This document shows positions 37,601-61,061 of a DNA stretch of 64,000 nucleotides, piece by piece. The notes under the pieces were generated by a model. It ran no database searches, was not told the DNA's origin, and saw nothing but the letters and a program-made list of their open reading frames with translations. This DNA is from Thermodesulfobacteriota bacterium (GTDB lineage: Bacteria; Desulfobacterota_D; UBA1144; Nemesobacterales; UBA2774): contig OZ244991.1 in NCBI GenBank assembly GCA_965223335.1, positions 2,240,001-2,304,000 on the forward strand, written 5' to 3'. Made by a program: the position numbers and the translations under genes. Numbering within the stretch: the stretch's first letter is position 1; the number at the start of each line of letters is the position of its first letter.

Positions 37601-38740
37601 TGCATCTTTAGTAGTTTGTGCAGCTACACCGTAGGTTTTAGCTACATTTTCTACTGTATTATTTAATTCTTTGTAATTAATTGTTGTGTCTTTTATAACC
37701 TTCAAGCCAGCCGGAAAATTATTCCCAATGCTTGTAAGCATTGTTTCAACATTCTCAAGCTGCTCTTCGACTGCTTCACCCTGTTTGTTGAAATCTTTAA
37801 TTGAGTTTATTGCTCCCTCTGTATCAATGTCTAACTTCTTTTCTATACCTCTGTTTTTACCTTCCCGATTTTCAAAATCTTTTATTTGTTGAACTGCACC
37901 TTCCTTATCAATTGTTATTTTCTTCTCAACTGGTATTTTGATTGGGTCAATATCATTAAATATCTGAAGGAGATCATTTAAATCAAGTTCTTTAGATACT
38001 TCTTCGTTGAGATTCTTAAATTGTTCTAATGGAAAAATATCTTCTATTGGTAGAACATAATTTTTAAGATCTTCTTTGTATCTATTTAGTGCTTCTATGC
38101 TTGCAGTTGGATCAATTAATTCTTGTATTTCTTTTTTCTTTGTTTCGATAGATTGTTTTAATTTCTCAATTTCTTCTGTATTTTTGTTGATCTCAAACTG
38201 AAGTGGATCGCTCCTCAGCACACGATCTTCTTTTATTATTTCAGGCGTTACTTGTATGTGCTTTAGTTGTTCTATACTTTCGTTTAGCAGTTTAATATTA
38301 TTTTCTATTGCTTTAATTTGTTCATCTGTAAGATTCTTGATACCTTTTCTACCTGCTTCTAATGATCTCTCAAGGTAATGTTTTATAATCTCAAATAAAA
38401 ATATTTGGAAATCGGCACCTATATTAGATCTAAACATATTACCAATCATGACATCTAATTGTTCAAGCCAGGCTCCAATTTCTAATGTTACTAAATCAAC
38501 TACATCCCTAATATAATTTTTTCTTCTTTGTATCCGTAAGGACTTATTGCGATTTTCAAGTTGTTCTATGTTTGAATTTATAGATTCTATATCGGATTCA
38601 ATACTTTTAACTTTGATTTGAATTTCGCGTTGGTCTAAATCTACAATGGATTTTTCTGTTACCTCTATCTTCTTATTAGCATCATCAAGAGCTCTATCAT
38701 CAACTTCAAATGCAAGTTGGTATGTTGATTTATAATTCAT
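34676..38740 (-). CDS. Tape measure protein allele A (full-length, 1354 aa)
   Basis: Long coiled coil, Gly/Ala amphipathic segment, C-terminal FMTGG...GLARLHPKELIL and ININVNVNGG typical of TMP ends; upstream of tail-tip genes. Confidence 0.85.
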   Translation of the reverse strand: MNYKSTYQLAFEVDDRALDDANKKIEVTEKSIVDLDQREIQIKVKSIESDIESINSNIEQLENRNKSLRIQRRKNYIRDVVDLVTLEIGAWLEQLDVMIGNMFRSNIGADFQIFLFEIIKHYLERSLEAGRKGIKNLTDEQIKAIENNIKLLNESIEQLKHIQVTPEIIKEDRVLRSDPLQFEINKNTEEIEKLKQSIETKKKEIQELIDPTASIEALNRYKEDLKNYVLPIEDIFPLEQFKNLNEEVSKELDLNDLLQIFNDIDPIKIPVEKKITIDKEGAVQQIKDFENREGKNRGIEKKLDIDTEGAINSIKDFNKQGEAVEEQLENVETMLTSIGNNFPAGLKVIKDTTINYKELNNTVENVAKTYGVAAQTTKDAGVTLQNLTEYVAQNTGELKDNEDAINEAAKATREWTREELEEAARKLEEINKRLKEQGFDGLFFEYAISSGNDSDQVPEDVKKSTEEAKGILDEFGVYAANVVANISQNFGDLIFETLKGNFDSLSDFWDATMDSILKSFSDLVAAIASKPIIYLLQPKVQGGGAGAQGGGGAKGLAGLFDIGQGFKTIGSGLSKIPGVSGIIDSVKGLFGTGGALAGLGKAFAGIGTFISSAIPVVGAIVSVALPLVSLIKGFLKKKPRLDLDFDSIKTEAGRRAAFVKELLDEDFFLDEIAQISVKRKAGLGVGGDEKIKELLQETLQQAADNVLEIINRLPSELAETLREQLSNTQLDIDTVIKGERFLEFDAKGKEIKKKFEQFINGELQAKFLFAIDDFLQGAFESLGVLPEAASEFLAGRLEDFKNTSSREERAAVGQQLLEDFSAFVDAFNIIEGNAGDSITAAINSVKSLADTLGFEGVPSVEEFNAKLRELLNNVELDASTVQDFVELRNAIIALRTEIVDSVINIIGVVDQLNSTIVSIGGTAVDTTGYMNQAIDSIQGALEGGGLSLSEREGLLGQLNSLATGLLQAEQAAAQAAAEARAQAQRRGIESQIAGLEREKDLIEENFDTRIEALQEELRLAEEFASLTESIRETLRSIVFSAESVFTTVEQINMLQGELVGLQQELAVVNDPERQIEIARRMEDAFKTLFDLAGDAFGVNSPEFVAIFEQVTGGLSSLAEFTENASRSVEEINAEIERLNAERNVMLESIDLRIEALQDRLSAIGSQNVQATFQASERVQELFEFMRNEAIAILEERLAQLEELEAEGIRTEIEGLQLIADFNRDIVQIDQEQLTVLKDIKGALTNIPQFMTGGYTETGGLARLHPKELILNQGHQSMLHRNLVQATKLGELVATPRQQESMIGGEININVNVNGGSSAAVAALPASIEDAIVRSINKGGKIRGAIQKASKRTLN

Positions 38741-38909
38741 GTTTTAGTTACGAGGTGTCACATTCAGCTATTATACGTTGTAATGTGCTCTCTACTCCTT
38801 GAAGTGATAAATTTATTGTTTGTGATATATGCTTGTTAACTTCAATTCTTAGACTAGTTAACTATTATGCGATATAGATTTTTGACTATTAATTATTTAT
38901 AATAAAGGT

Positions 38910-39236
38910 ATGCAGTATGTATGTCAGAAATGTTATTACAAAGGCAAACCAAAATATTCACACTTAAACAACTATCGCATACCAATAGGTGGTTTTTTTA
39001 TTGGATTTGGTATCTATATGGTTTCCCATTTGAGTAATTCATCTTTTGCTAATTCATATCCATTCATTTTTTACATATTATTTTGTTTTCCATTCGTTCT
39101 ACTCGGAGCATTCTTAATTTATAATTATCAGGATAATAACAGCGACTTGTGTCCAAAATGTTCCTATGGACATATGCTTCTGTTGAATACCGTAAAAGCA
39201 AATAAATTTATTCAAACAAACAACATAAAAATTTAG
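38910..39236 (+). CDS. CxxC-2TM-CxxC membrane protein (cassette 1a)
   Basis: CQKC, two hydrophobic helices, CPKC. Confidence 0.8.
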   Translation: MQYVCQKCYYKGKPKYSHLNNYRIPIGGFFIGFGIYMVSHLSNSSFANSYPFIFYILFCFPFVLLGAFLIYNYQDNNSDLCPKCSYGHMLLLNTVKANKFIQTNNIKI

Positions 39237-39258
39237 AAATTCTTAATATTGAGAACCT

Positions 39259-39630
39259 ATGCAGAAAATATGTATAAATTGTAATTATATTGGTAAAGAA
39301 ACATACAAGTACTCTTTTCTTATAATCCCAGGTATCTTGACATACCTTGGTCTGCAATTTGTGAAAGTATTCATGCTGGTATCACTTTTTAAAGTTTTAG
39401 GTGGAATAGTTTTTATTGCGATTGGTCTATATTCATTGATAATATTTGTAAGAAATAAAGAACAGTGTCCAAACTGCAACGGTTTCAGGACTATGATTCC
39501 CGTTGATACCCCTCATGCCAAGCGAATAATTGAAAAACATAATCTTACTATCCCAGATCAACTAGAAAGCAATCATGTAACTAGTCATACTCAAACAAGT
39601 TCTTCATCCCCCTTCCAATCCCCAAAATAG
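39259..39630 (+). CDS. CxxC-2TM-CxxC membrane protein (cassette 1b)
   Basis: CINCNYIG...CPNC...MIPVDTP.A; ends SSSSPFQSPK. Confidence 0.8.
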   Translation: MQKICINCNYIGKETYKYSFLIIPGILTYLGLQFVKVFMLVSLFKVLGGIVFIAIGLYSLIIFVRNKEQCPNCNGFRTMIPVDTPHAKRIIEKHNLTIPDQLESNHVTSHTQTSSSSPFQSPK

Positions 39631-39635
39631 CTGTT

Positions 39636-41789
39636 CTATCCACACCCTATCCCCATACTCTCATCCATTGCCTTATCCATGCTCTCTAACCTCTTCCCAT
39701 CATACACTTCATTGACTTCATCCACATTCCCTAACCCCCACGACCCCAATTTATCCCCTCCCTGTCGCTCATAAACTACATTTGCTTGCGGCCCCCACAT
39801 CTCTTCCCATGTAATATCTACAATCTCATCACTATAATCCATCTTTACAGCCTTAAGCCCGCTTCCAATGGTCTTAAACCCCTGTCCTATATCGAACAAC
39901 CCTGCCAGGCCTTTGGCCCCGCCACCCCCTTGGGCTCCGGCTCCACCACCCTGCACCTTGGGCTGCAACAGGTAAATGATCGGTTTTGAAGCAATTGCGG
40001 CCACCAGGTCCGAGAACGACTTTAGAATGGAGTCCATAGTCGCATCCCAGAAATCACTCAAGCTGTCAAAGTTACCCTTTAAGGTCTCGAATATCAGGTC
40101 GCCAAAGTTCTGGCTTATGTTCGCTACCACATTCGCCGCATACACCCCAAACTCGTTTAAACTATTTTTTGCTTGGCTTGTATCTTCATTAATCTTTTCC
40201 GCTACATCAGTGTTAACTTCAATATCTATGACACCCCCACCCGGAATTTCGTCATTAAGTAGTTCTCTTATCCTCTCCCGTAATTTTTCAAGTTCCTTCC
40301 TCGATAGATTTAATCCAAGAATTGCAAAATCTTGAGTTGACTTATTTGCTTCTAGCGTCAAATCGATATATTGTTCAATTAATCTTAGGTACTTAAGCAT
40401 ATCTTCATTTAATTCTTCGATATTTTCTTCCACATCCTCAGTACTAGCACCTACTAAATCCATACTTGTTGTAAAAGATGTTGAATTTTCTTCTGCAATT
40501 TTTTTGATTGTTTCAAATCCTCTATGCTGTTCTTCTGGGCCAATGAAAGGTATCAGTCCTTTAAAGTTAATACCCTTTAATTTATTAAAAACAGTTTCTG
40601 CTCCACTTCCAATCTTTCCTAATGCTGTACCTATTTTATTCACAGAGCTCTCTAATATTGGTACTATTTCTTCCTCCCAGACTATCTCAGAGTTTAATTT
40701 AATCGCTTCCCAATTATCTATAATTGTAAGTACACCGGCTGCAATTCCTGATAGACTGGCACCTACTAAAGTGAATTTCCCAATTGGCGAGGTAGCAAGC
40801 AATCTCAATCCATGCAACAAAGTACTAAGCCCTATACTTATATTCTTAGTTTTAGATACGAATTCTGCGACACTTTTTGTAACTTTATTGTTTGCTAATA
40901 TAGCTCCAAATTTTCTTATACTTTCAGTGATTTTTGAGAAGTCTACATTCGCGAGTTGATCTAATTTTATTTTGCCAGCTTCCTTAAGAGATCTGAGACC
41001 TTGTATCAGCTTGCCCCATTCTGCACGTGCACCTTCACCAATTGCTTTAAAGAAGTCTCTTACTCTATCGACTCCAGCTTTTGAGAAATCTCTCACCGTG
41101 CCTGCAAATTCTTTTAATCTATCAAACCCTCTTGATCCAAATTCTTTTGCCCGCCCGAGAAAATTTACAATATTATCGTATTGTGCCTTTCCACCTTCTT
41201 TTAGTGATCTGAGAAAGTCTTTAAAATTATAATAGTTAATCGAAACAAGATCCTTTATATCACTCCCGAGGCGTTTAAACACACCACCAACCCCTTGTTT
41301 CTCAAAAATATTACGAATGGTTTTAATATAATTTTCTGCAAATACCCTTGTGACTTCTAATGTTGTGCGCGTATGTTGTATTAATTCTCTATTTTTAAAG
41401 AAACCCAGCAACACATCATCTAATGCACCAAATGCTATTTCTAGAACTTCAGTTACTTCTGCAAAAGATATCCCTATTATTGGGCCTATAATTGATAATT
41501 CTTCAGCCTTCTCAATCAAATTATCTATAAACTCACTAAATGTACTTATAGTTTTTTCTTGATCTAGTCCAAACGTCTCAAATTCGTCCCTATTTCCAGC
41601 ACCTTTTGTTGTTAATTCCTGCAGTTTCTTATTGGTGGTGTCTATCTCTCCATTAAATTGTTCAAAAGTACTTCGACTCTTTTCTGCGACTTTTTCAATA
41701 TCATCCCCGGCTTTCTCAGTTTCATCCTTCAATTGTTCAAGAGCTTTGGTATCAGTTACAACCTTGAGAGTCAAATTTGTTATTTCCAT
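39636..41789 (-). CDS. TMP allele B (C-terminally truncated, 717 aa)
   Basis: Unique N-term; shares EFGVYAANVVANISQNFG...GFKTIGSGL with A, then short DYSDEIVDITWEEM tail. Confidence 0.8.
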   Translation of the reverse strand: MEITNLTLKVVTDTKALEQLKDETEKAGDDIEKVAEKSRSTFEQFNGEIDTTNKKLQELTTKGAGNRDEFETFGLDQEKTISTFSEFIDNLIEKAEELSIIGPIIGISFAEVTEVLEIAFGALDDVLLGFFKNRELIQHTRTTLEVTRVFAENYIKTIRNIFEKQGVGGVFKRLGSDIKDLVSINYYNFKDFLRSLKEGGKAQYDNIVNFLGRAKEFGSRGFDRLKEFAGTVRDFSKAGVDRVRDFFKAIGEGARAEWGKLIQGLRSLKEAGKIKLDQLANVDFSKITESIRKFGAILANNKVTKSVAEFVSKTKNISIGLSTLLHGLRLLATSPIGKFTLVGASLSGIAAGVLTIIDNWEAIKLNSEIVWEEEIVPILESSVNKIGTALGKIGSGAETVFNKLKGINFKGLIPFIGPEEQHRGFETIKKIAEENSTSFTTSMDLVGASTEDVEENIEELNEDMLKYLRLIEQYIDLTLEANKSTQDFAILGLNLSRKELEKLRERIRELLNDEIPGGGVIDIEVNTDVAEKINEDTSQAKNSLNEFGVYAANVVANISQNFGDLIFETLKGNFDSLSDFWDATMDSILKSFSDLVAAIASKPIIYLLQPKVQGGGAGAQGGGGAKGLAGLFDIGQGFKTIGSGLKAVKMDYSDEIVDITWEEMWGPQANVVYERQGGDKLGSWGLGNVDEVNEVYDGKRLESMDKAMDESMGIGCG

Positions 41790-41804
41790 CTTTGTTCTCC
41801 ATAA

Positions 41805-41841
41805 AAAAAGCCGACAATTAAGCTATTTAATTGCCGGCTTT
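41805..41841. terminator. Inverted repeat/terminator between TMP-B and its partner
   Basis: aaaagccgacaattaa-gctat-ttaattgccggctttt. Confidence 0.6.
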
Positions 41842-41882
41842 TGCATCTAGAATTTTATTTTCTATATAGTTATTCTCTTTAT

Positions 41883-42656
41883 ATGTCCAAGCTCTGCACC
41901 AATTGCCACTACATTGGTAAGTCCAAATCTCAACTAGAGACTAATTTTGTATGGCTATATGTATCTTTTTTTGTTGGAATTGTTGTTACGGTACTAGCGT
42001 TACGGTTTCCCATTCTAGGCATTGGAACCATAATAGCTGTAGGTTCTATAATCTTCTATTTATGTGAGTATTTTGAAGGGTCATCTGCATGTCCTAAATG
42101 TGACCAGATAACTCTTTACCATACCTATACAAGGCTTGCTCAAGAAATTGGAAAAATAAATAATCTCAATCTAGAATCTTCCAATAGATTACTACAGCCT
42201 ATACATAGCTTATATGATCATTTTTATTTAATTAAACAAAAGATATGTATCAAATGCCATGAAGTTAGTGCAGATGATTATGAAAGAAATTCATTTCTTC
42301 ACCTTGGTTTATTGCTATGTTCGTTTGGAGTTTTATTGCTACCACTAGGTTATTTACACCCATTATTCTTGATTGGACCTTATTGTTATTTATTTTTAGG
42401 GATAATTTTATTCATACATGGTTTCGGTGATTCCACTACCTGTTCGAGATGCTCAAGTTCAACTTTGATACATTTAGATACACCAAGAGCTAAACTTATA
42501 TTAGACACTGGAAATAATAATTTTGTGCGCACACACCCTAAATTAAAATCTTATTTAATCGATAGTGATTTCAGTTACAGCCTTATAGTTACTGCATTAT
42601 TAATAAATACATACGTATTCTACCGACTCTACATCTACTTCAGCCATATCAATTAA
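41883..42656 (+). CDS. Double CxxC-2TM-CxxC membrane protein (cassette 2a)
   Basis: CTNC..CPKC and CIKC..CSRC modules, C-terminal TM; ATG at 41883 by homology. Confidence 0.8.
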   Translation: MSKLCTNCHYIGKSKSQLETNFVWLYVSFFVGIVVTVLALRFPILGIGTIIAVGSIIFYLCEYFEGSSACPKCDQITLYHTYTRLAQEIGKINNLNLESSNRLLQPIHSLYDHFYLIKQKICIKCHEVSADDYERNSFLHLGLLLCSFGVLLLPLGYLHPLFLIGPYCYLFLGIILFIHGFGDSTTCSRCSSSTLIHLDTPRAKLILDTGNNNFVRTHPKLKSYLIDSDFSYSLIVTALLINTYVFYRLYIYFSHIN

Positions 42657-42667
42657 TTGGATATAAC

Positions 42668-43336
42668 ATGAAAACAAAGGTGTTCTGTCCACAATGCTAT
42701 TCTATCACTTATGCTATACAAAGCCCTTTTAAGAGCCTTGTTATAGCGGGTTTATCAATAGGTTTTGGTGTTATGTATTTATTATCATATCAAGAACAAA
42801 AGTCAGTATCTGATAATGCATCTTATTTGATTCTTAGTCTTGCTATATTGCTAATATTTTTCGGTGTTAAAATCATTCGTAAACGCCAGAAACCACCTGC
42901 TACATGTCCAAAATGTACATTTAGGAATACAAAGAGTCTCGGTTCCAATGAAGCACTTGCTATTATATACACCTATAATTTATCTTCGGAATTCGACAAA
43001 TCTGATCTTTGTACAAATTGCCATTATATTGGTGAGGGTATTCCTACCCAAATAAGTACCATCTTCGGCGCAATATTCTTGCTAGTATTGGGTATTGTGT
43101 ATATATCTCTTGGTGTTACAAGCGATTCAATCCGATTATATGGAGGTGCTATATTCCTACTATTCGGACTTTATTGCTTATATCCTCACATCCGCAATCG
43201 CAAAATCTGCCCCAAATGCAGCAAGAAATCGGTGATTTCTGTAGATTCAAATCTTGCCCAACAAATAATCCAAGACCATAAACTCACAATCTCAGAACCT
43301 TCCAAGGAAGAGTCGTACCCATCAGTTTCACAGTAA
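42668..43336 (+). CDS. Double CxxC-2TM-CxxC membrane protein (cassette 2b)
   Basis: CPQC..CPKC and CTNC..CPKC modules. Confidence 0.8.
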   Translation: MKTKVFCPQCYSITYAIQSPFKSLVIAGLSIGFGVMYLLSYQEQKSVSDNASYLILSLAILLIFFGVKIIRKRQKPPATCPKCTFRNTKSLGSNEALAIIYTYNLSSEFDKSDLCTNCHYIGEGIPTQISTIFGAIFLLVLGIVYISLGVTSDSIRLYGGAIFLLFGLYCLYPHIRNRKICPKCSKKSVISVDSNLAQQIIQDHKLTISEPSKEESYPSVSQ

Positions 43337-43356: not shown

Positions 43357-45315
43357 TCACTCAACCCTTATATCCTCATAGAATACCTTATCTATGCCTC
43401 CTAACCACCTATTATCACTCACTACATATGCTTCAACCATATCTATTAGCCCCATCATCTCCATCTCCTCCCACGTTACATCCACAATCTCATCACTATA
43501 ATCTGTTTTTGCCGCCACCAGGTCCGAGAACAACTTTAAAATAGAGTCCATAGTCGCATCCCAGAAATCACTCAGGCTGTCAAAGTTGCCTTTCAAGGTT
43601 TCGAATATCAGGTCCCCAAAGTTCTGGCTTATGTTCGCTACCACATTCGCCGCATATACCCCAAACTCGTCAAGTATTCCCTTTGATGCCTCTGTACCTC
43701 TCTCGACCCCTTCCGCCATCTCCTCAAATTCCTGCGAGCTTGGTAGATTGATTTCAGGGGTTAATCCAAATTTAGCTAGGGTGTTATTTACCTCTATTAA
43801 CTTATTTCCCGCCGCTTCCAGCTCCTCACTGGTCCACTCCCTCGTTGTTCGAGCTAACCCAGTTATAGCTGTTTCGTTGTCTGATATGTTGTTCGAGTTC
43901 TTAGCCAATGCCGAATTGAAATTGTTCAATGCCCCTTCTGCATTATTTACTTGTTCGGACACATTCTTAAAATTCTCTGCCGTTTCATCATTCGCTATCC
44001 CACCACCAGGGATTTCAATATTACCGGTTCGAACTTGGTCCATTATATTCAACAGGTCACGCAATCCTTCTGATACAAGTGGCAATCCCCCAGCCCCAAA
44101 TGCACGCATAGATGTATCTAGGTTCTTAATTACCGGTTGAAATTTCTCAAATTGTGCCTGCTCCTTTTGTAATGCCTCGGCAATATCTATTATTTCTCCA
44201 CTATCTGTCTCTCCTACGATGCCCTTGAATTCAATACTCAGTTGAGTGGGTGGTATTTGACCCTGTACCTCTTGAATATCTTGCAGTACCCCCAGCATTT
44301 CATCTAGCCCATCTACTACTAGGGGTAAAGCCCCGGCACCAAAAGTCCTAAAACTATCTTCATAGTTCTCGAACAGAGGTTCAAAGTTTTCAAACTGTTC
44401 AAACTGCCGTACTAATTCATTAGTAACGCTCTTTATGTCACCGCTGGTTGTCTCTCCAAATACTGCACCAATGTTTAATTCACTGTTAAAATTCTTTATA
44501 GATTCTTGGAATCTCTCCTGTTCCTCCTGAGCTTCTCTTAATTTTTCATTATATTTTTCTACTCCTTTTAAGAATGGACTATTTTCTGCTTCCTCATCCA
44601 TTATTATCGGCAGATTTAACCTCATAGCCTCCCAATTATCTATAATCGCTAAAATACCCGCTGCTATACCTGTCAAAGATAGACCAATTACAGAAAATTT
44701 CCCTACTGGGGAACTAACAAGCGCAGCTAATCCCGCTCGTAGTGCGGTTACGATTCTTCCCAAAGATGTTAGACTTGAATTTAAGGTTTTGAAGTCAAGA
44801 CTTGCTAAAAATTTAACGAGTTTGTTGAAATTTAAGATTATGTACAAAACTAAGGGATCTAAGAAATTGAGATTCTGTAATAGTTGATTAAAAAGTGGAT
44901 TTAATAAATATAATGCTCTCACTGATGCTACTACGAATTCATCAATCTGAGACCAGAAGACAAGGAGTCCTCTAGCAAATCTCTCTAATATTGGATTTGA
45001 TGTTTCTAAGATCTCAGAACCAACTAGACTAAGAAGTTGCAAGAAATCAAATAGTACATTTTGAGACTCTCTTAATGCTTCTCTCGCATGTTCAACAATT
45101 GATTCAAATACTTCATCAAAACTAGACCCACTCCTCCACAGTTCACTCATATTAGTGGAAGTGTTTTGTAATTCTTGGTTCAACTGGTTGAAAGTGCTGT
45201 TACTTCCTGCTACTTGGTTTATTGATTCAGATGCTTTATCAGCATCTACTGAAAGTTGTTTTATAGCACTAGTGTCTACCGAAAAATGTAGACTAATTTC
45301 ATTCATTTCAGGCAT
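43357..45315 (-). CDS. TMP allele C (truncated, 652 aa)
   Basis: MPEMNEISL head, unique ~160-aa segment, then near-identical to D from ALR.GLAALVSSPVGKF to FSDLVA; short KTDYSDEIVD tail. Confidence 0.8.
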   Translation of the reverse strand: MPEMNEISLHFSVDTSAIKQLSVDADKASESINQVAGSNSTFNQLNQELQNTSTNMSELWRSGSSFDEVFESIVEHAREALRESQNVLFDFLQLLSLVGSEILETSNPILERFARGLLVFWSQIDEFVVASVRALYLLNPLFNQLLQNLNFLDPLVLYIILNFNKLVKFLASLDFKTLNSSLTSLGRIVTALRAGLAALVSSPVGKFSVIGLSLTGIAAGILAIIDNWEAMRLNLPIIMDEEAENSPFLKGVEKYNEKLREAQEEQERFQESIKNFNSELNIGAVFGETTSGDIKSVTNELVRQFEQFENFEPLFENYEDSFRTFGAGALPLVVDGLDEMLGVLQDIQEVQGQIPPTQLSIEFKGIVGETDSGEIIDIAEALQKEQAQFEKFQPVIKNLDTSMRAFGAGGLPLVSEGLRDLLNIMDQVRTGNIEIPGGGIANDETAENFKNVSEQVNNAEGALNNFNSALAKNSNNISDNETAITGLARTTREWTSEELEAAGNKLIEVNNTLAKFGLTPEINLPSSQEFEEMAEGVERGTEASKGILDEFGVYAANVVANISQNFGDLIFETLKGNFDSLSDFWDATMDSILKLFSDLVAAKTDYSDEIVDVTWEEMEMMGLIDMVEAYVVSDNRWLGGIDKVFYEDIRVE

Positions 45316-46169: not shown

Positions 46170-46174
46170 TCCAG

Positions 46175-52860: not shown

Positions 52861-52887
52861 TCCTTTATCCACATCTTTTCCACAGCC

Positions 52888-54959: not shown

Positions 54960-56171
54960 CTATTCCCCAATTTCTTGACTATTATTTCTCCCTACTTTAT
55001 TAATCGAATACATCACTTTATTTATGCCTCCTAACCACTCATCATTACTCACTTCATTTGCTTCAACCATATCTGTTAGCCCCATAGTCTCCATCTCTTC
55101 CCATGTCACATCCACAATCTCATCACTATAATCTGTTTTAATCGCTTCCCATGCGTTCGCCGCAGTTTCTTTTATAGCCTCCCACTGTTCCCCCAGCCAC
55201 GATGTCAGCCGTTCGTATTGCTGTCCTATCCACTCAACACCAGCCGTTGCTTTCTCCGTAACGAAATTCCATGCTATTTCAGCCCCTGCCTTAAAATTAT
55301 CCCATATAAATAGCACTGCATCCCCTATCAGTCCTATTGCATACGCAATATTCTCCGCCGCAGACTCAATAAGCGGCACTATATTCTCTTCCCAGGTTAT
55401 CTGTGCAGCTAATTTAAGCTCATCCCAATGGTCTATTACTGCTCGTACACCCAGATATATTCCTCCAAGCGCCGCTACTACTAAACCTATTTTAAGTACT
55501 AGTGCACCACCTAAGAACGTTCCTACTGCTCTTATAACGTTCAAAAACAGACCAAACGCCCTGGATTTCCCAATAATTTTAAATAGATTTAGCAGTCTGC
55601 TGCCTAAGTTCTTTATCACTTCAAGTACTGATTTTAACCTTGGCACCAGTGACTTTATTCGATCCCTAATGCTTGTTATCACATTTTTTAATTTGTTAAA
55701 ACTTTCTTTAGGATTTACTACCGTAGTCCCGATTAATTTCAATGCACCGGCTAGAGATCTTAATATCCTTACAATCCCAACAAAACCAGAAAAAGTGATA
55801 AACAACTTGCCTCCAAGTGTATCTGCTTCCGTTATGTTTTTAATCCACTCTTTTATCCCATCGATAAAACCGCCAAATACTACATCAAAAGCAGATTTAG
55901 TATTTTTTGATTCATTAGCTAAATCTTTAATACTGTTTTTTGCCTGATCTGTAGATTGCTGTATCGATTGAGCAAATGTACTGTCACTATTTATCTTTTG
56001 TATGTTTTTCCCAAATAGCTCGAGTTCTTTATTTAAATTGTTGAATGTAGAAGTTACATCTAAAGTAGAGTTGTTAAAGGACTCTAGCGACTTCTCAGAA
56101 TCAGCTTGAAACGCTTTAAAACCATCAGAGTTTACACTTACATTGACTTCCAAATCTTTAACTTCAGCCAT
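54960..56171 (-). CDS. TMP allele E (truncated, 403 aa)
   Basis: MAEVKDLEVNVSVNSD head; IDHWDELKL..ITWEENIVP like B; W-x10 periodic repeats (IWDNFKAG.EIAWNF..WEAIKETAANAWEAIK); short tail. Confidence 0.8.
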   Translation of the reverse strand: MAEVKDLEVNVSVNSDGFKAFQADSEKSLESFNNSTLDVTSTFNNLNKELELFGKNIQKINSDSTFAQSIQQSTDQAKNSIKDLANESKNTKSAFDVVFGGFIDGIKEWIKNITEADTLGGKLFITFSGFVGIVRILRSLAGALKLIGTTVVNPKESFNKLKNVITSIRDRIKSLVPRLKSVLEVIKNLGSRLLNLFKIIGKSRAFGLFLNVIRAVGTFLGGALVLKIGLVVAALGGIYLGVRAVIDHWDELKLAAQITWEENIVPLIESAAENIAYAIGLIGDAVLFIWDNFKAGAEIAWNFVTEKATAGVEWIGQQYERLTSWLGEQWEAIKETAANAWEAIKTDYSDEIVDVTWEEMETMGLTDMVEANEVSNDEWLGGINKVMYSINKVGRNNSQEIGE

Positions 56172-56261: not shown

Positions 56262-57095
56262 ATGCAACATATTTGTATTGATTGTCACCATATTGGAAAA
56301 GGAAAAGACCAATTAAGTTACAACAAAGTAGATATATTAATTTACTTAGTACCAGCTCTAATCTGCACTGTTATAGCATTTATCTACCCTATCGCTTTGA
56401 TAGGTACATTTATACTTATATTTGCACTGACAGGAATATTAAGTAGTCCTTATGCTTTTGTTGATCAATGTCCGGAATGCTCTAAAATTATGTATCCTAT
56501 CGATAGCCCTCAAGCTCAAAAAGTTATCCGAGACAATGATATAAATTATGATGCTTCTTCAGTGTCCAGAACCAATTTCATAGATAGGTTTCACAAGATA
56601 CGTCAGATTAAAACACAAATTTGTCTTAATTGTCAGCATATTGGAGTTGGTCGTCATCAAGAAATCTGTAATTTAATGGAAGTTTTTCTAAATCTCCCAT
56701 TGGCAATTATCACAATACCGTTGGCATACATTACCCCTTATTCCCTTATTGGTTCATTTCTATTTGCATATTTGGGGCTGGGTGCGTTGTTTCAGTGTTT
56801 TGTAAAGTCCGATACTTGTCCCATTTGTAAGAAAAAAAAGATGATCTCTCTAACTTCTTCGGAGGCTGATAGATTTATAAAAAACAATAATATAGAATTT
56901 CAATTAGAAAATGCTGATACTAAGCCATTTTTTTTGAATGAAACATTTAATATACTAGTATTTACAGCTTTATTTTTTGTAACACTTTATTACTATTACA
57001 TATTATTTGTACACTTTAGTAATGGTATAGATCCTTTAGATATGCTATATCAATATATTTACGATGTGCTAGACAATATATCCACTAGATTATAA
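56262..57095 (+). CDS. Double CxxC-2TM-CxxC membrane protein (cassette 8a)
   Basis: CIDC..CPEC and CLNC..CPIC. Confidence 0.8.
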   Translation: MQHICIDCHHIGKGKDQLSYNKVDILIYLVPALICTVIAFIYPIALIGTFILIFALTGILSSPYAFVDQCPECSKIMYPIDSPQAQKVIRDNDINYDASSVSRTNFIDRFHKIRQIKTQICLNCQHIGVGRHQEICNLMEVFLNLPLAIITIPLAYITPYSLIGSFLFAYLGLGALFQCFVKSDTCPICKKKKMISLTSSEADRFIKNNNIEFQLENADTKPFFLNETFNILVFTALFFVTLYYYYILFVHFSNGIDPLDMLYQYIYDVLDNISTRL

Positions 57096-57120
57096 TTTCT
57101 AAATATTATATAATTATTAA

Positions 57121-57543
57121 ATGCAAAAGGTATGTCGCAGTTGCCACTTCGTAGGTAAAGGCAAAAACAGCTGGTTTGATGGTAATATTTTCTTTGGACT
57201 TATTACAGTTGCAATTGGTATTGGCGTTTTAGTTACGGGTTACTTCTCTTTCTTATCTCATACTATAAAAATTATATTCGGTATATTTTTAATAATTACA
57301 GGCATCTATGACATTATAAAGTTTTATATAGGCGGTCCTATCTGTCCTAATTGCAAGAAAAGAGAGATGCTTAATATCGACGATCCTAAAGCTATCGAAT
57401 TGGTTAAGAACCTAGACCTAATAGTAGGACAAAACCCTACCCAGGTCACCGATAACACCCCGTTAGATCCACCACCTCCGCCCTCCACTTCCTCCGAATC
57501 CTCCACCGACCCTTCCTCCTCCCCCTTCCAAACCCCAAAATAG
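57121..57543 (+). CDS. CxxC-2TM-CxxC membrane protein (cassette 8b)
   Basis: CRSC..CPNC; ends PSSSPFQTPK. Confidence 0.8.
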   Translation: MQKVCRSCHFVGKGKNSWFDGNIFFGLITVAIGIGVLVTGYFSFLSHTIKIIFGIFLIITGIYDIIKFYIGGPICPNCKKREMLNIDDPKAIELVKNLDLIVGQNPTQVTDNTPLDPPPPPSTSSESSTDPSSSPFQTPK

Positions 57544-57571
57544 CCTTTTTATCCACATCTTTTCCACAGCC

Positions 57572-59593
57572 CTATTCCCCAATTTCATTAATCGCATAGA
57601 TTACTTTATCTATATCATATAACCACCTATAATCACTCAGATCATTGACCTCATCTGTCTTCCCTAACCCCCACGATCTTATTTTGTCCCCTCCCCGTCT
57701 CTGATCAACTACATTCGCTTTCGTTCCCCACATCTCTTCCCACGTAATATCCACAATCTCATCACTATAATCTGTTTTTACCGCCACCAGGTCCGAGAAC
57801 GACTTTAGCATCGAGTCCAGTGTCGCATCCCAAAAATCACCCAAGCTGTCAAAGTTGCCTTTTAAAGTTTCGAATATCAGGTCGCCAAAGTTCTGGCTTA
57901 TGTTCGCTACCACATTCGCCGCATACACCCCAAACTCGTCAAGTATTCCCTTAGATGCCTCAGTACCCCTTTCAACTCCTTCCGCCATCTCCTCAATTTC
58001 CTGCCCGCTTGGTAGATTGATTTCAGGGGTTAATCCAAATTTAGCTAGGGTATTATTTACCTCTATTAACTTATTCCCCGCCGCTTCCAGCTCCTCACTG
58101 GTCCACTCCCTTGTTGTTCGAGCTAACCCAGTTATAGCTGTTTCGTTATCTGATATTTTGTTTGTGTTCTGAGCTATAGCAGAATTGAAATTGTTCAATG
58201 CCCCTTCTGCATTATGTACTTGTTCGGACACATTCTTAAAATTCTCTGCTGTTTCATCACCCGCAATTCCCCCACCCGGGGTTTCAATATTACCGGTTCG
58301 AACTTGGTCCATTAAGTCCAACATTTCATCTAATGCATCATTAACAAGTGGTAAAGACCCGCTGCCAAATCCGTGTGTGGACTTATCGATGGATTCTATT
58401 ACGTTCTCGAACCTTTCTAATTGAAGAGTCTGGTTTATTAAGTCTAGATATACGTTATCTATGTTTTCACTTGGAATTTGCCCATAATCGATATCTAGGC
58501 TTATCCCCTGTTCTGTGGTTTTTTGTAGTTGTTGGTATGCTTCTGTGTTATCGTCAACTACATTGCGCATCTCGTTCAACTCTTTGGTAGTTTGCGGGAT
58601 CCCTTCATTTCCAAATTTGCCAATTGCCTCACCAGCATTATTAACTGCTTCAGCAGTTTGTTCTGAGGTTGTCCCCAGAATATTCATGCCATTGTTAAAC
58701 AACTCAATACTTTCACCACCACCCTCTAGGGTTGCACTTTGGAATTTCAATGTGCTTGTAAATTGTTCAACCATTTTTCCTGTCTGGTCAACGTTGTAAC
58801 CAATATCGGCAAAAGCATCTTTGGCTTTATTAAGATCTTCCGAATTTCTAAAGATTTCTTCGTTTGCCATCTTCTGGACATCAATAGTATCAGAAAGGAC
58901 ACCTCTCAAATTTGAGTAGGCATTTTCGACTTCGGATAATTGTTGACTCCTTTCATTTGTTATGCGACTGGTGGCATCAAGAATATCTTGTAATTCTTTT
59001 TCTAATGGTCCAATGACATCCACATAATTATATTCAATTGAAATAGGTACAGGTATACGTTGTGGAGGCGTAATTATATTAGAGGATGTCCCACTGCCTG
59101 CATCGACTTTGAATGTTGTTAAATCCTCTTCAATATCCTTTAATTTCTCAAGAAATATGCCTAGTGCCCTAATTCTTTCTAGAATTATATCCTTATCTAA
59201 TGGTAAGTTTGTCAATCCATCGTTAAGACTAGGATCTTCTCCTATTTCTTCAACTTCCCTCAATAAATCTCTTGCTTGTCTACGCAGGGTAACTACAGTG
59301 CTTTGTAATTCTTCTAATCTAACTAAATCTGGCTTATACTGTTTATAGCTCCTTCTAATATAATCTATAGTCAAACTTGCAATTAACCCAATAATAGTGC
59401 TGATAATTATATCTACACCGAAACCTGCTTTATTTATTTGCAAGTCTGCTTCTGCAGATTGTACGTGGTTCTTAACTTGAGATGAGTTAATTGATTGTAT
59501 CTGTTTTAGAATCTTGTCTAGTTCTCGTTGATTTTCCTTCAGTCTAGAAAGATCTAAATCAAAAAATATTTGAAATACACTACTTTCGTTCAT
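57572..59593 (-). CDS. TMP allele F (truncated, 673 aa)
   Basis: Unique N-term; joins C/D sequence at MDQVRTGNIE.PGGG; shared EFGVYAAN box; short tail. Confidence 0.8.
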   Translation of the reverse strand: MNESSVFQIFFDLDLSRLKENQRELDKILKQIQSINSSQVKNHVQSAEADLQINKAGFGVDIIISTIIGLIASLTIDYIRRSYKQYKPDLVRLEELQSTVVTLRRQARDLLREVEEIGEDPSLNDGLTNLPLDKDIILERIRALGIFLEKLKDIEEDLTTFKVDAGSGTSSNIITPPQRIPVPISIEYNYVDVIGPLEKELQDILDATSRITNERSQQLSEVENAYSNLRGVLSDTIDVQKMANEEIFRNSEDLNKAKDAFADIGYNVDQTGKMVEQFTSTLKFQSATLEGGGESIELFNNGMNILGTTSEQTAEAVNNAGEAIGKFGNEGIPQTTKELNEMRNVVDDNTEAYQQLQKTTEQGISLDIDYGQIPSENIDNVYLDLINQTLQLERFENVIESIDKSTHGFGSGSLPLVNDALDEMLDLMDQVRTGNIETPGGGIAGDETAENFKNVSEQVHNAEGALNNFNSAIAQNTNKISDNETAITGLARTTREWTSEELEAAGNKLIEVNNTLAKFGLTPEINLPSGQEIEEMAEGVERGTEASKGILDEFGVYAANVVANISQNFGDLIFETLKGNFDSLGDFWDATLDSMLKSFSDLVAVKTDYSDEIVDITWEEMWGTKANVVDQRRGGDKIRSWGLGKTDEVNDLSDYRWLYDIDKVIYAINEIGE

Positions 59594-59680
59594 GTTTACC
59601 TCTTATTCTGGATATGTGTTAATGTTAATTAGTTACTAAAGTGTCTTGGTATTTGGTTTTATTTTAGATATAATATTTTT

Positions 59681-60067
59681 ATGGCTTATGTATGCCCTAA
59701 ATGTTTATATTTAGGAGATTCCAACTATCGCTATCATTCCAAATATCTTGATGCTGGATTTGTGATCATAGTACTTGGAGCTTTTTTATTTGTAGTGCAT
59801 GTTTTGACTCCTGGCTCTTCTGCGTTATCTGTAATGCTCACATTAATCATTATAGCAAGTGGTGTTTATATTATATACATGAATAGACAAGGCAGAATCT
59901 GTTCAAAGTGTAATTTTAACGGTGTGCTTTCTACGGATACTGCTGATGCGCTGGACTTAATCAAAAAGTACGACCTAGAACCTGGTGACAATACCAATAA
60001 GAGACCAATCTCCACTTCTCCCTCTACAGACTATACTAACACCTCCCCCTTCCAATCCCCGAAATAA
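59681..60067 (+). CDS. CxxC-2TM-CxxC membrane protein (cassette 9)
   Basis: MAYVCPKC..CSKC; ends TSPFQSPK. Confidence 0.8.
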   Translation: MAYVCPKCLYLGDSNYRYHSKYLDAGFVIIVLGAFLFVVHVLTPGSSALSVMLTLIIIASGVYIIYMNRQGRICSKCNFNGVLSTDTADALDLIKKYDLEPGDNTNKRPISTSPSTDYTNTSPFQSPK

Positions 60068-60095
60068 CCCACTTATCCACATCTTTTCCACTGCC

Positions 60096-60209
60096 TTATT
60101 TCCCTATTTCATTAACCGATTCAGATGCTTTTTCTGCGTCTTGTGATAGCTGTTTGATCTGACTTGTGTCCACAGAAAAATGAAGACTAATCTCATTCAT
60201 TTCAGGCAT
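60096..60209 (-). pseudogene. TMP stub, 37 aa (MPEMNEISLHFSVDTSQIKQLSQDAEKASESVNEIGK)
   Basis: Near-identical to 46198-46311. Confidence 0.8.
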
Positions 60210-60287
60210 TTATACCACCTCGTATAACATCGCAAATACTGATATTTGTATCTAGTTAATTAGTTTCTAAAAAGTTATAATTTAGGT

Positions 60288-61061
60288 ATGAAATCGATTT
60301 GTATTAGTTGTCACACAATTAGCGAGCTAAAGAAGGTTAGAGAATGTAATCACATGTCAACTGGGTTGCATTTTGTTGGAGCTGCGTTCTTTATCCCGTT
60401 TGGTCTACTATTCCCAATATTATTCATTGGTACATTCTTCTTTGTAATAAAAGGAATTATTCATTTAGCAGCTTGCTATGATACTATGAGTCTTTGCCCA
60501 GAATGCAATACTAGAAATGTGCTTCCGGCGGATTATTTCCTATCAAATGGCATTGAACTTGATGATCGCATTTCTAAAGAAGATTTACAGATTAAAGTTC
60601 TTGAATACGGTAAAATCGGGTCATATCTTATATATAAACGAATAAAAGTATGCACTTTCTGCCAATATATTGGGTTAAATTGGGAACAACAACATTTTAG
60701 TTTGATTATGGGGTCACTATTTCTTGGGGCATCACTATTATTTGTACCACTAGCACAAATCAATCCTCTACTGTTAATATTGAGCTATATCGCTATGTTT
60801 TTTGCGATATCAATCATACTAGCATCATTAAGTAATTCAAAAAAATGTCCTAAATGTGAATATAAATCACTTATTCCTATTGATTCTAGAGGCGGGAAAT
60901 TTATTCTAGAAGAAAAGAGTATCAATTTTAGTACACCGATTAGGTCATCTCGTATCCCAACTATATCTTACGATAATGGCATATTTTATACTGCATTTAT
61001 ATTAATATTAGCTACCTACATCTACTACCGCTTATTCCTCTACTTCAACTCCCTAAATTAA
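60288..61061 (+). CDS. Double CxxC-2TM-CxxC membrane protein (cassette 10), mosaic
   Basis: 5' part matches 53080 gene, 3' part matches 52096 gene, unique middle. Confidence 0.82.
   Translation: MKSICISCHTISELKKVRECNHMSTGLHFVGAAFFIPFGLLFPILFIGTFFFVIKGIIHLAACYDTMSLCPECNTRNVLPADYFLSNGIELDDRISKEDLQIKVLEYGKIGSYLIYKRIKVCTFCQYIGLNWEQQHFSLIMGSLFLGASLLFVPLAQINPLLLILSYIAMFFAISIILASLSNSKKCPKCEYKSLIPIDSRGGKFILEEKSINFSTPIRSSRIPTISYDNGIFYTAFILILATYIYYRLFLYFNSLN

Follow-up and report, generated by a model that had tools for sequence, protein, structure and literature searches.

A prophage array of whole and cut-off TMP genes, each back to back with the gene of a small zinc-binding membrane protein

Results

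Organisation of the array

The window, that is the whole 64-kb stretch of DNA that was analysed, includes part of a prophage of an uncultured bacterium, with a 23-kb array of whole and cut-off tape measure (TMP) genes, each of which lies back to back with the gene of a small zinc-binding membrane protein (Table 1). The minus strand of the array carries two full TMP genes (A and D), four truncated ones (B, C, E and F) and four short stubs, every copy being divergent from one plus-strand gene. The plus-strand genes belong to a single orphan family, named ZR here, in which a CxxC/CxxC zinc ribbon is split by a transmembrane hairpin. This layout of alleles, stubs and facing genes had been described in an initial annotation and was confirmed at the coordinates checked; the fourth stub (stub X) and two orphan 3' tails had been overlooked. 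All TMP and ZR copies of the genome are found within the window.

The site of the array is a hypervariable island between a tail-chaperone-like gene and the TMP gene of a siphophage-type prophage. The island measures 27 kb from the chaperone-like gene to the start of A, a length at which the prophage may be unpackageable, so that parts of it may be decay. Immediately to the right of the window are the chaperone-like gene (189 aa) and a major-tail-like gene (494 aa). It is allele A that connects to the tail and lysis genes downstream, a module that also encodes a 264-aa protein, a 1157-aa protein and small membrane proteins. The island has additional cargo: two secreted proteins and a HicA/HicB-like pair, all identified by sequence alone.

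Table 1. Features of the TMP-ZR array and of the adjoining tail and lysis module.
Feature	Position	Strand	Description
Rest of tail and lysis module	23670..34600	-	behind allele A
Endolysin	25513-26181	-	tail/lysis module, downstream of A
Gp80-type fibre protein	30297-31082	-	tail/lysis module, downstream of A
TMP allele A	34676-38740	-	full length, 1354 aa, MNYKSTYQLAFEVD
Junction block in A	37162..37336	-	conserved, ILDEFGVYAANVVANISQNFGDLIFETLKGNFDSL...
ZR pA1	38910-39236	+	single-module, 108 aa, MQYVCQKC, faces A
ZR pA2	39259-39630	+	single-module, 123 aa, second gene after pA1
TMP allele B	39636-41789	-	truncated, 717 aa
Junction block in B	39995-40156		
ZR pB1	41883-42656	+	two modules, 257 aa, MSKLCTNC, faces B
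ZR pB2	42668-43336	+	two modules, 222 aa
TMP allele C	43357-45315	-	truncated, 652 aa, MPEMNEISLH
Junction block in C	43509-43683		
ZR pC	45396-46169	+	two-module MKS clade, faces C
Stub 1	46198-46311	-	MPEMNEISL, 37 aa, between pC and pS1
ZR pS1	46390-47160	+	two-module MKS clade, faces stub 1
TMP allele D	47782-52017	-	full length, 1411 aa, MPEMNEISLQ
Junction block in D	50232-50408		
ZR pD	52096-52860	+	MKS(I/L)C type, faces D
Boundary motif copy	52861..52887	-	27 bp, between convergent stop codons
Further boundary motif copies	start at 46171, 47161, 53854, 54933, 57545, 60069, 61062		27 bp
Stub 2	52888-53001	-	MPEMNEISL, 37 aa, between pD and pS2
ZR pS2	53080-53853	+	MKS(I/L)C type, faces stub 2
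Orphan tail	53884-54120	-	
Stub X	54240-54383	-	MPEMTELALK..., 47 aa, faces pX
ZR pX	54561-54932	+	single-module, 123 aa, faces stub X
TMP allele E	54960-56171	-	truncated, 403 aa
ZR pE1	56262-57095	+	two modules, 277 aa, MQHICIDC, faces E
ZR pE2	57121-57543	+	140 aa
TMP allele F	57572-59593	-	truncated, 673 aa, MNESSVFQIFFDLD
Junction block in F	57778-57982		
ZR pF	59681-60067	+	single-module, 128 aa, MAYVCPKC, faces F
Stub 3	60096-60209	-	MPEMNEISL, 37 aa, between pF and pS3
ZR pS3	60288-61061	+	MKS(I/L)C type, faces stub 3
Array right end	61062..61268	-	boundary motif, then terminal orphan tail (61092-61268)

D is an orphan that no tail genes follow. It shares 84% DNA identity with A over 2.3 kb, and its final ~100 aa are unlike A. 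The conserved junction block of A is common to B, C, D and F with 89-94% DNA identity, and is likely to be the site of homologous exchange. Allele B begins with an N-terminal part of its own, continues with the junction block as far as GSGL and closes with an in-frame 'KMDYSDEIVDITWEEM..' tail. C also closes with an in-frame tail, and F consists of its own N-terminal part (aa 1-385), a block 90-91% identical in DNA to C and D, and a tail. In E the variable part is fused directly to the tail, without a junction block. B and E have an IDxW..KL....WEE.IVP..ES block in common. The truncated alleles retain start codons, Shine-Dalgarno sequences and open frames, and no Shine-Dalgarno sequence was seen ahead of the ATG of allele A. 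The shared TMP blocks have dN/dS of 0.06-0.25, the truncated alleles therefore carry sequence that evolved as working TMP.

Six tails in the window are joined in frame at three different TMP positions, and the 59 aa of the terminal orphan tail are identical to the tail of E. The boundary motif (GGCTGTGGAAAAGATGTGGATAAAGGA on the TMP strand) is present in eight copies in the window and in zero copies in the rest of the genome. A repeated unit of ~1 kb comprises a stub, a 78-bp promoter region and a ZR gene. Relatives have another constant element (..EEWEYRLAA stop, TATATATA, hairpin) in 14 copies at nine loci. In 13 of these it is entered in frame from recognisably TMP-derived sequence, at at least six different TMP positions, and the remaining copy (L009) is preceded by sequence of unknown origin.

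ZR genes and proteins

All 13 ZR genes in the window are intact. One of them, pS3, is chimeric, with a first module 98% identical to that of pS2 and a C-terminal part nearest to pD. A TATAAT-like box ends 6-7 nt ahead of the ATG in 36 of 62 ZR genes, and each gene looks like a separate leaderless transcription unit directed against the late operon. The predicted structure is a zinc ribbon split by a transmembrane hairpin (pLDDT 82), and the model of a two-module protein has five transmembrane helices (pTM 0.70).

None of the 13 ZR proteins in the window matched a PADLOC defence family. Two CxxC knuckles with a hydrophobic insertion between them are also found in the membrane-embedded split zinc ribbons DUF2614 and PRK02935 (YgzB-type), the scores being 20.1 bits against a cut-off of 21 for DUF2614, in only one of the 13 proteins, and 19.3 bits against a cut-off of 108 for PRK02935. 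LITAF-like domains have the same arrangement; a LITAF-like assignment of ZR would be a language-model lead (0.84).

TMP heads and facing ZR proteins

The initial annotation proposed that the type of TMP head co-varies with the type of facing protein. All five MPEMNEISL heads do face a 254-257 aa MKS(I/L)C protein, but these are not independent cases since three of the five are 37-codon stubs in the repeated unit; among the five, all of them copies of that unit, the variable TMP part is present only in C and D. The partners of A and F are both single-module as described, but their supposed relatedness (30% identity between pA1 and pF) is at background, which is 17-38% identity between any unrelated ZR modules in the window. 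B and E do have the common IDxW block, two-module partners and a second gene each, but their partners are 32% and 24% identical in the two modules, again background, and a second ZR gene also follows pA1 at A. The partners of A and F, like those of B and E, have only architecture in common. In the window, alleles with the IDxW block face two-module ZRs (4/4) and alleles without it face single-module ZRs (2/2).

The C and D loci show where the variable segment ends. Their DNA is 41-80% identical from the ZR gene to TMP codon ~195 and 87-100% identical thereafter, so that codons 1-195 of C have diverged from D and codons 195-600 have not. Between C and D, TMP aa 50-190 have pN 0.46 and pS 0.52 (ratio 0.81), the ratio for pC and pD is 0.24, and the first 50 TMP codons and the control region are better kept than aa 50-190.

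The TMP family is present in 18 of 120 genomes of the phylum, and like arrays with conserved cassette boundaries recur in related Candidatus Dadabacteria prophages and a viral contig. Truncated alleles are also arrayed in G002, G013, G022, G096 (two arrays), G019 and the viral contigs L038 and L042, with the full-length copy always last, adjoining tail genes. G021 has one TMP and the gene order of the window prophage: tail terminator, tail protein, 189-aa gene, opposite-strand ZR cluster, TMP, 265-aa protein and Gp80-like protein. Among 47 TMP-like ORFs, a ZR gene faces the TMP start within 200 bp in 16 cases, six in the window and ten in G004, G021, G002, G013, G096, one viral contig and one metagenome contig. 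For 24 of the 47, which are more distant TMP relatives, no ZR gene faces the TMP within 1.2 kb.

Similarity of TMP 5' parts was compared with similarity of facing ZRs in these 16 pairs from eight genomes or contigs. The Mantel correlation was 0.394 (p 0.0004), 0.348 without C (p 0.001) and 0.317 when only the 102 between-genome pairs were used (p 0.003), hence co-variation exceeds chance across genomes. The best cross-locus similarity of the TMP-facing ZR gene is 0.23-0.40 in six of seven loci, and that of the farthest or next-to-farthest ZR gene is 0.65-0.90 in all seven. Only the TMP-facing ZR varies between loci, and the distal genes are conserved.

The C/D breakpoint, the between-genome correlation and the restriction of variability to the TMP-facing ZR support the earlier proposal that partner, divergent promoter and TMP 5' end form the inherited unit, and TMP head and facing ZR are inherited as one block. 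The earlier caution that physical linkage could suffice also holds: TMP and ZR genes are 76-194 bp apart, and linkage this tight explains the co-variation without any function. The further step to specific toxin-immunity or exclusion pairs does not follow. In the variable TMP parts Pfam gave no match at cut-off, to a toxin domain or otherwise. Phages that have one TMP possess 4-5 ZR genes, which is not a 1:1 relation. In G002, what lies opposite an E-like allele is not a two-module partner but a gene orthologous (similarity 0.74) to the second gene at another locus. Nothing in the sequences establishes TMP and ZR as functionally cognate pairs.

Discussion

Several observations, namely how the array is built, its presence in relatives too, the breakpoint between C and D, the correlation across genomes, the gradient from proximal to distal ZR genes and the pattern of selection, lead us tentatively to favour an account of cassette exchange combined with exclusion of related phages, plausible as a whole though short of an even chance. 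The unit of exchange would be a cassette of one or two ZR genes, the short divergent control region and the TMP 5' part. Cassettes from other phages would recombine into the conserved middle of TMP through homology, and the full-length gene would acquire the incoming 5' part as its head. The 5' part that was there before would persist upstream in a truncated allele, which the constant boundary element closes in frame. With entry as a unit, the co-variation of TMP head and facing ZR would be block inheritance. TMP fragments would later shrink to stubs and vanish while ZR genes stay intact, which would give the clusters of 4-5 ZR genes in relatives. The joining of the boundary element at many TMP positions, with one precise end, is left unexplained by cassette entry.

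It is possible that ZR genes merely hitch-hike as morons whose role has nothing to do with TMP, for example in other defence or a membrane function. The spot upstream of TMP would then be a permissive site of insertion and recombination, and the TMP 5' fragments would be left behind as scars, since homologous exchange would find its nearest conserved sequence within TMP. The short TMP-ZR spacing, the several ZR genes beside a single TMP, ZR clusters with no TMP within ~8 kb (G018, G017 and G036), the decay of TMP fragments to 37-codon stubs next to whole ZR genes, the other cargo of the island (secreted proteins and HicA/HicB-like pair) and the background similarity of the A/F and B/E partners are all consistent with this. 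It does not explain the joint variability peak in the TMP-facing ZR and TMP aa 50-190, the better keeping of the first 50 codons and control region between them, or the fixed position of the ZR family at every TMP-facing locus of this phage lineage. Morons are described as small autonomous transcription units between late genes, independently oriented (PMC3594210). The -10-like box in 36 of 62 ZR genes fits that description; unlike morons, ZR genes have multiplied, are hypervariable and remain physically attached to fragments of a neighbouring structural gene.

An unlikely alternative is that the array is a store of TMP heads for programmed switching, in which the direct junction repeats recombine, the intervening DNA is lost and an upstream head ends up on the full-length body. 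Progeny would differ in TMP head and could escape exclusion or use another membrane entry factor. The direct repeats (160-300 bp) shared by A, B, C, D and F, the stretches over which C and D are 100% identical and which point to recent exchange, the translation signals and purifying selection in truncated alleles and the final position of the full-length copy in relatives suit such switching. However, no recombinase gene was seen in the array and prophage part (window 23.6-64 kb and 9 kb to its right), none of the six integrase-like matches of the genome is within 100 kb, switching through deletion would run in one direction, the junction block is missing from E and the stubs would be unusable. 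In silent-cassette antigenic variation (pilE/pilS, vlsE) a single complete gene is accompanied, as here, by partial copies stored nearby that have conserved blocks in common with it. TMP partial copies differ in keeping starts and ribosome binding sites, in being direct repeats and in carrying a second gene, and no conversion event was observed in the TMP array.

We also doubt that ZR is a helper needed in the phage's own cycle and hence co-adapted to its own TMP head, for example in holding or inserting hydrophobic TMP at the membrane or in timing assembly. Its constant position beside the chaperone-like gene and TMP, and the association of the hydrophobic IDxW block with two-module ZRs, would suit a helper, but ZR genes are directed against the late operon with promoter-like boxes of their own, many TMP relatives face no ZR, one TMP goes with several ZR genes, and ZR genes are retained next to useless stubs.

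It is very improbable that the variable head acts as a toxin domain that is injected, with immunity conferred by the facing ZR protein, since despite the tight adjacency of the genes and the resemblance to displaced toxin-tip and immunity cassettes, a Pfam search of the variable TMP parts gave no toxin, enzyme or other domain at cut-off, PADLOC matches were scattered and weak, the heads are helical or hydrophobic with weak matches only to PHROGs tape-measure families, and a phage has no obvious gain from poisoning the cell it needs for replication. Such orphan cassette arrays occur at CDI (cdiA-CT/cdiI) and Rhs loci. There too a long conserved gene has one polymorphic end and a travelling small partner gene, displaced partial copies keep a conserved piece that permits homologous re-fusion, and partner genes are intact while partial copies decay. 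The TMP-ZR array has no sequence relation to these loci and is arranged as their mirror image, with the variability at the N-terminus and the partner gene divergent on the upstream side; its long gene encodes a phage structural protein.

In the favoured account, TMP-directed exclusion would be the most likely function of prophage-expressed ZR. ZR proteins in the inner membrane may, though we put this no higher than a possibility, impede TMP-mediated genome entry or TMP use by related phages, and the diversification of ZR would go hand in hand with that of the exposed TMP segment (aa ~50-190 in C and D). Against the account we count that ZR matches no known defence family, that there is no 1:1 relation, that linkage suffices, that distant TMP relatives have no ZR, that A/F and B/E partners are at background similarity, the E-like allele in G002 and the missing ribosome binding site of allele A.

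Prophage defences aimed at TMP or placed within the tail operon reportedly include HK97 gp15 and Ltp. Prophage Tab is described as recognising the TMP of invading phages (PMC10884400), and SNIPE as acting at the inner membrane in association with TMP, with variable TMP segments determining sensitivity (PMC13190303). The defence gene taiA is described as divergent within the late operon (PMC11364771), a placement like that of the ZR genes. As far as these descriptions go, the systems are prophage- or host-encoded, several are membrane-bound and specificity is set by variable TMP segments, as proposed for ZR; an array of TMP alleles is not part of them. ZR has no detectable similarity to Tab, Tai, SNIPE, HK97 gp15, Ltp or any PADLOC model. 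If the exclusion reading is true, a lysogen would profit from gathering several ZR types.

Array layout and prophage setting

The tape measure protein (TMP) genes of this prophage lie on the minus strand between 34.7 and 61.3 kb of the window, where two full-length and four truncated genes (alleles A to F) are accompanied by four stubs and two orphan 3' tails. The genome comprises 2.7 Mb in three contigs, the window being G000:C1:2240001-2304000, and when it was searched as a whole no copy of the TMP, or of the gene family facing the TMP starts (ZR, described below), was found outside the island.

Positions of TMP genes and boundary elements in the window and in related loci
Feature	Position	Strand	Remark
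TMP allele A	34676-38740	minus	full length, 1354 aa
TMP allele B	39636-41789	minus	truncated, frame intact
TMP allele C	43357-45315	minus	truncated, frame intact
TMP allele D	47782-52017	minus	full length, 1411 aa
TMP allele E	54960-56171	minus	truncated, frame intact
TMP allele F	57572-59593	minus	truncated, frame intact
MPEMNEISL stubs (3)	46198-46311, 52888-53001, 60096-60209	minus	37 codons
Fourth TMP stub	54240-54383	minus	overlooked in the initial annotation
27-bp motif (8 copies)	starts 46171, 47161, 52861, 53854, 54933, 57545, 60069, 61062		between convergent stop codons
Boundary element of relatives	L038:3430-3452, 7138-7160, 10760-10782
Boundary element of relatives	L012:13385-13407, 16684-16706
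Boundary element of relatives	L042:10625-10647, 13769-13791
Boundary element of relatives			also in L009, L011, L014, L017, L050, L051

Tail, fibre (Gp80) and endolysin genes are found behind allele A. Upstream of A, beyond the island and to the right of the window, lie genes for a 189-aa chaperone-like protein and a 494-aa major-tail-like protein. The latter is 71% identical to its counterpart in the related genome G021, where the gene order is the same. The chaperone-like gene is separated from the start of A by 27 kb, of which the array itself occupies about 23 kb (38.7-61.3 kb), and the rest of the island holds two secreted proteins and a HicA/HicB-like pair, all named from sequence alone. 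Searches for tRNA, tmRNA and Rfam families gave no match in the window or in ten loci, so the boundaries are not tRNA-type attachment sites.

The identification of the alleles as TMP rests on this position, A being flanked on one side by the distal genes of the tail and on the other, beyond the island, by the chaperone-like and major-tail-like genes, and on weak matches of C, D, E and F to PHROGs TMP families (E 1e-7 to 2e-11). A and B have no PHROGs TMP match and a Pfam TMP domain was found in none of the six. Common DNA blocks link A, B, C, D and F, including a mid-gene junction block. E shares DNA with the other alleles in its 3' tail only, and a hydrophobic stretch, the IDxW block, is common to E, B, C and D. 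Both A and D encode very long proteins, in which the junction block is followed by a G-rich hydrophobic stretch.

Several other features of the window and of related loci were recorded. The two secreted proteins of the island have signal-peptide-like N-termini, read by eye, and no family match; the second ends in a long P/G-rich tail, and beyond them, immediately to the right of the window, comes the HicA/HicB-like pair (61890-63980 and L058:4440-5105). An extra stretch of about 1 kb separates the stop of TMP A from the tail gene that follows, this interval being only about 240 bp in relatives, and it contains a repeat of about 110-160 bp in two tandem copies that are 95% identical (33862-34232). 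An inverted copy (8504-8617) lies beside a HigB-like toxin gene at 8.5 kb, and the repeat may be a small mobile one. The HigB-like toxin (PF05015, E 3e-22) is paired with an HTH antitoxin (7879-8523). The run of tail genes is interrupted by two small genes (31199-32055): one matches phrog_5176 and, weakly, PADLOC PDC-M05B (E 3.4e-4), the other encodes a 156-aa protein with no match, and together they could be a defence or toxin-antitoxin-like pair within the tail module. The host part of the window carries a 240-360-bp repeat three times (1137-1490, 7581-7822 and 10826-11179; 69-77% identical). An ECF-type sigma factor gene (22462-23461) adjoins the TMP-distal prophage end, and in genome G004 one lies directly behind the TMP (L009:6283-6882), which suggests the same insertion site and a truncated G004 prophage.

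A split zinc-ribbon family faces the TMP starts

Each of the ten TMP starts in the window has a ZR gene opposite it, divergently oriented across a gap of 78-177 bp. All 13 ZR genes of the window are intact. The ZR module has two CxxC pairs, with two hydrophobic helices between them and a short helix after the second, and the cysteines at positions 5, 8, 70 and 73 are invariant in 28 ZR sequences. An AlphaFold model of the module (pLDDT 82) is a small zinc ribbon with strands at residues 3-5 and 79-81, its halves parted by a transmembrane hairpin (helices 19-38 and 43-68). The model of a two-module protein contains two ribbons and five helices that read as transmembrane (pTM 0.70). As modelled, ZR is a split zinc ribbon with a membrane hairpin, a descriptive class in which metal binding is predicted.

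No described family accommodates these proteins among the collections searched. The best Pfam match, of one of the 13 proteins to DUF2614 (PF11023), scores 20.1 bits and falls below the gathering cut-off of 21, so membership was rejected; the other 12 have no match. NCBIfam gave no match at its cut-off and PHROGs none. Membership of a described defence family was likewise rejected, with 0/13 proteins matching PADLOC at E <= 0.01. Using the model as query, Foldseek returned no PDB match at E <= 0.001, a wide VIA-align search found generic helical hairpins only (Z < 8), and the best BFVD match was a 'Zinc binding domain' (E 1.3e-3). A word-indexed database search found relatives in 28 clusters, all named 'hypothetical protein', and an exhaustive search found 831 representatives at E <= 0.001, 139 of them at <= 1e-10.

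Promoter boxes were read in the 45 nt upstream of each ZR start in the window and in loci L009-L051. A TATAAT-like box precedes the ATG in 36 of the 62 genes, ending 6 nt (32 genes) or 7 nt (4 genes) upstream, and an ACTAGA-type motif, seen by eye and uncounted, is often present farther upstream. The two motifs suggest a promoter or operator type common to ZR genes, which are probably autonomous, leaderless transcription units directed against the late operon. A generic scan for promoters and terminators was no richer than shuffled sequence (62 against 67.6 expected, and 12 against 11.2). The divergent region between B and its partner pB1 (41790-41882) contains a long palindrome, AGCCGACAATTAA...TTAATTGCCGGCT, flanked by runs of A and T, which resembles a two-way terminator or an operator and is unexpected at this position.

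The gene pS3 (60288-61061), which faces a stub, is recombinant. Its first module is 98% identical to that of pS2, with two nonsynonymous and no synonymous differences, and its C-terminal part is closest to pD, the last 55 or so residues being identical by eye. ZR modules are therefore exchanged within genes.

Pairing of TMP heads and ZR partners

The types of TMP head and the partners facing them in the window are as initially annotated. The five pairings of MPEMNEISL heads with ZR proteins of the MKS type (alleles C and D and three stubs) stand as facts but carry less weight than they appear to, being one repeated unit of about 1 kb whose 78-bp control region is near-identical in four copies; only C and D of these have a variable TMP part. 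The partners of A and F, and those of B and E, are no closer to each other than unrelated ZR modules are: pA1 and pF are 30% identical, and pB1 and pE1 32% and 24% in their two modules, against 17-38% between unrelated ZR modules. The MKS clade does stand out, at 41-63% in module 1 (98% for pS2 and pS3) and 44-72% in module 2. All four alleles with the IDxW block face two-module ZRs and both alleles lacking it face single-module ones, C and D not being independent.

The proposal that partner, divergent promoter and TMP 5' end are inherited together is supported by three lines of evidence. From the ZR gene to about TMP codon 195 the DNA of C and D is 41-80% identical, and over the following 1.2 kb identity rises to 87-100%. 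In the diverged stretch the first 50 or so codons remain similar, and residues from about 50 to 180 are about 28% identical by eye. A Mantel test compared the similarity of the first 250 TMP residues with that of the facing ZR module in 16 pairs with the ZR gene less than 200 bp away, one 116-aa fragment that is not an N-terminus being left out. The correlation was 0.394 for all 16 pairs (p 0.0004), 0.348 without C (p 0.001) and 0.317 for the 102 between-genome pairs only (p 0.003). Finally, the best cross-locus similarity of the TMP-facing ZR gene is 0.23-0.40 in six of seven ZR clusters and 0.74 in the remaining one, and that of the farthest or next-to-farthest ZR gene is 0.65-0.90 in all seven. 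Taken together, these results show that variability peaks jointly at the TMP head and the facing ZR gene.

The blocks common to the TMP alleles have dN/dS values of 0.06-0.25. Replacement sites in TMP residues 50-190 change nearly as fast as silent sites between C and D (pN 0.46, pS 0.52, ratio 0.81, near saturation); the ratio between pC and pD is 0.24. The sequence of the truncated alleles has evolved as working TMP, and the alleles appear to be imports from functional genes rather than old in-place duplicates.

Arrays and boundary elements in relatives

A ZR gene is divergent from a TMP start in G004, G021, G002, G013 and G096, in G019 and G001 (at a distance of 460-840 bp), and in single contigs of viral and of metagenome origin. 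Partial TMP alleles are found beside a full copy in G002, G013, G022, G096 (two contigs), G019 and the viral contigs L038 and L042. In these arrays the full copy is always last, adjoining the tail genes, many of the contigs ending inside the regions. The ZR cluster of G004 contains one boundary relic, a sign that such clusters may be arrays in decay.

In-frame joints at three different TMP positions connect the truncated alleles of the window to a 'K(T/M)DYSDEIVD(V/I)TWEEM...' tail, present in six copies and in none of the relatives. A 27-bp motif with two direct TGTGGA(W)AAAG repeats follows eight of the ten convergent gene ends, marks cassette boundaries and is absent from the rest of the 2.7-Mb genome. 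In relatives, truncated alleles are closed by another element, which has 14 copies in nine loci and comprises ..(E/D)E(W/M)EYRLAA, a stop codon, a TATATATA tract, a hairpin whose stem appears by eye to vary by paired changes, and then GAC(A/G)G. Recognisably TMP-derived sequence enters 13 of the 14 copies in frame, the L009 copy following sequence of unknown origin, and the joints fall at six or more TMP positions. Simple homologous exchange gives no explanation of a constant end joined at many TMP positions.

Homology between the window tail and the EEWEYRLAA boundary of relatives was not supported (local alignment z <3 in 19 of 20 comparisons, maximum 4.0), and the two elements are taken as analogous only. 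An origin of the window tail from the 3' end of the chaperone-like gene was rejected, there being no similarity in relative loci or in genes right of the window. Recombination site, terminator and degradation tag are the candidate roles for the relatives' element; the host tmRNA tag is AETDFALAA and the boundary peptide ends alike (..YRLAA), a resemblance that we treat as a lead only.

No part of the ZR alignment is conserved well enough to serve as a search pattern. A pattern search for the boundary DNA matched solely a contig already in the locus set, and the one additional contig obtained with the conserved distal ZR stops short of any TMP. Contigs from four runs of one study, probably the source sample, reported no joint between junction blocks, these contigs breaking at repeats; depth differences between pieces are unusable. 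The single joint that goes back (56999 to 54883) extends past the limit of the stretch compared, and the record of a 46686/38887 joint carries 31 foreign letters.

Origin and possible function of the array

The locus is very probably a cassette array built by recombination, whose unit is the ZR gene or genes, the control region and the 5' part of the TMP. The route could be Campbell-type insertion into the resident TMP of a circle carrying a junction block, boundary, ZR gene and head, which would give the gene order, the position of the full-length copy and the duplicated junction blocks.

Why the block is hypervariable is a more tentative matter. The ZR protein may be a prophage-expressed inner-membrane protein that acts on the TMP-mediated entry of related phages, a possibility favoured by its membrane topology and orientation, by the variability that peaks jointly in head and partner, and by the survival of ZR genes next to stubs that have no use. 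Precedent also favours it: Tab is described as targeting the TMP (PMC10884400), taiA as divergent within a late operon (PMC11364771), and SNIPE as acting at the inner membrane with the TMP, variable TMP segments setting sensitivity (PMC13190303). Against it, phages with a single TMP carry four to five ZR genes, some ZR clusters have no TMP nearby, and 24 of 47 TMP-like ORFs have no ZR gene inside 1.2 kb. In G002 the gene opposite an E-like allele is orthologous to the second ZR gene of a different locus, and TMP A has no visible ribosome binding site; these count against it too. Pure hitch-hiking of the ZR genes is nearly as plausible as a role in blocking entry. A further point against a role in blocking entry is that so large an island may simply reflect decay, the prophage having become unpackageable. 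A toxin-immunity system, with the variable TMP end as toxin and ZR as immunity protein, would fit the small partner gene found beside all ten TMP starts, as in the polymorphic toxin/immunity class, but is disfavoured because no recognisable toxin or enzyme domain was found in the variable ends, Pfam (A-F) and PADLOC (B, C, E, F) giving only sub-threshold coiled-coil-type matches.

If ZR does block entry, the locus could be a key-and-lock system in phages and a mirror image of polymorphic loci, although all of its steps taken together are unlikely to hold. The key would be the diversifying N-terminal 50-200 or so TMP residues, used for crossing the inner membrane, and the lock the facing ZR protein, with which a lysogen would shut out phages carrying a matching key. 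Phages would trade cassettes of key and lock by recombining within the conserved part of the TMP. Keys displaced in this way would stay upstream, capped in frame by a dedicated boundary element, and in relatives the tag-like ..YRLAA end might mark leftover TMP fragments for ClpXP-type degradation. A lysogen would thus build up a collection of locks.

Conclusions

Among the papers listed by full-text literature searches, none has a title or abstract on TMP-allele arrays or the ZR family, which is not proof of absence. A 2026 paper on TMP-related effectors of contractile systems deals with variable C-terminal functional domains in Actinobacteria (PMC13277306), and the array here is a different thing. 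The known kinds that it extends are displaced-cassette polymorphic loci and prophage morons or defences.

The TMP is usually treated as a ruler and channel-former, and recent work shows that its variable segments determine the membrane factors and defences that a siphophage encounters. Here many TMP heads, each linked to the gene of a membrane protein, are stored in one natural locus, which recurs across a phage lineage of an uncultured phylum. Such a locus would offer ready-made matched and mismatched pairs for studying the recognition of TMP heads at the inner membrane, and would carry the displaced-cassette logic of polymorphic toxin loci over to a structural gene of the virion. Should the link be purely physical, the locus remains a clear example of a unit of evolution that reaches across the ends of two divergent genes, and it also introduces an unannotated family of putative split-zinc-ribbon membrane proteins.
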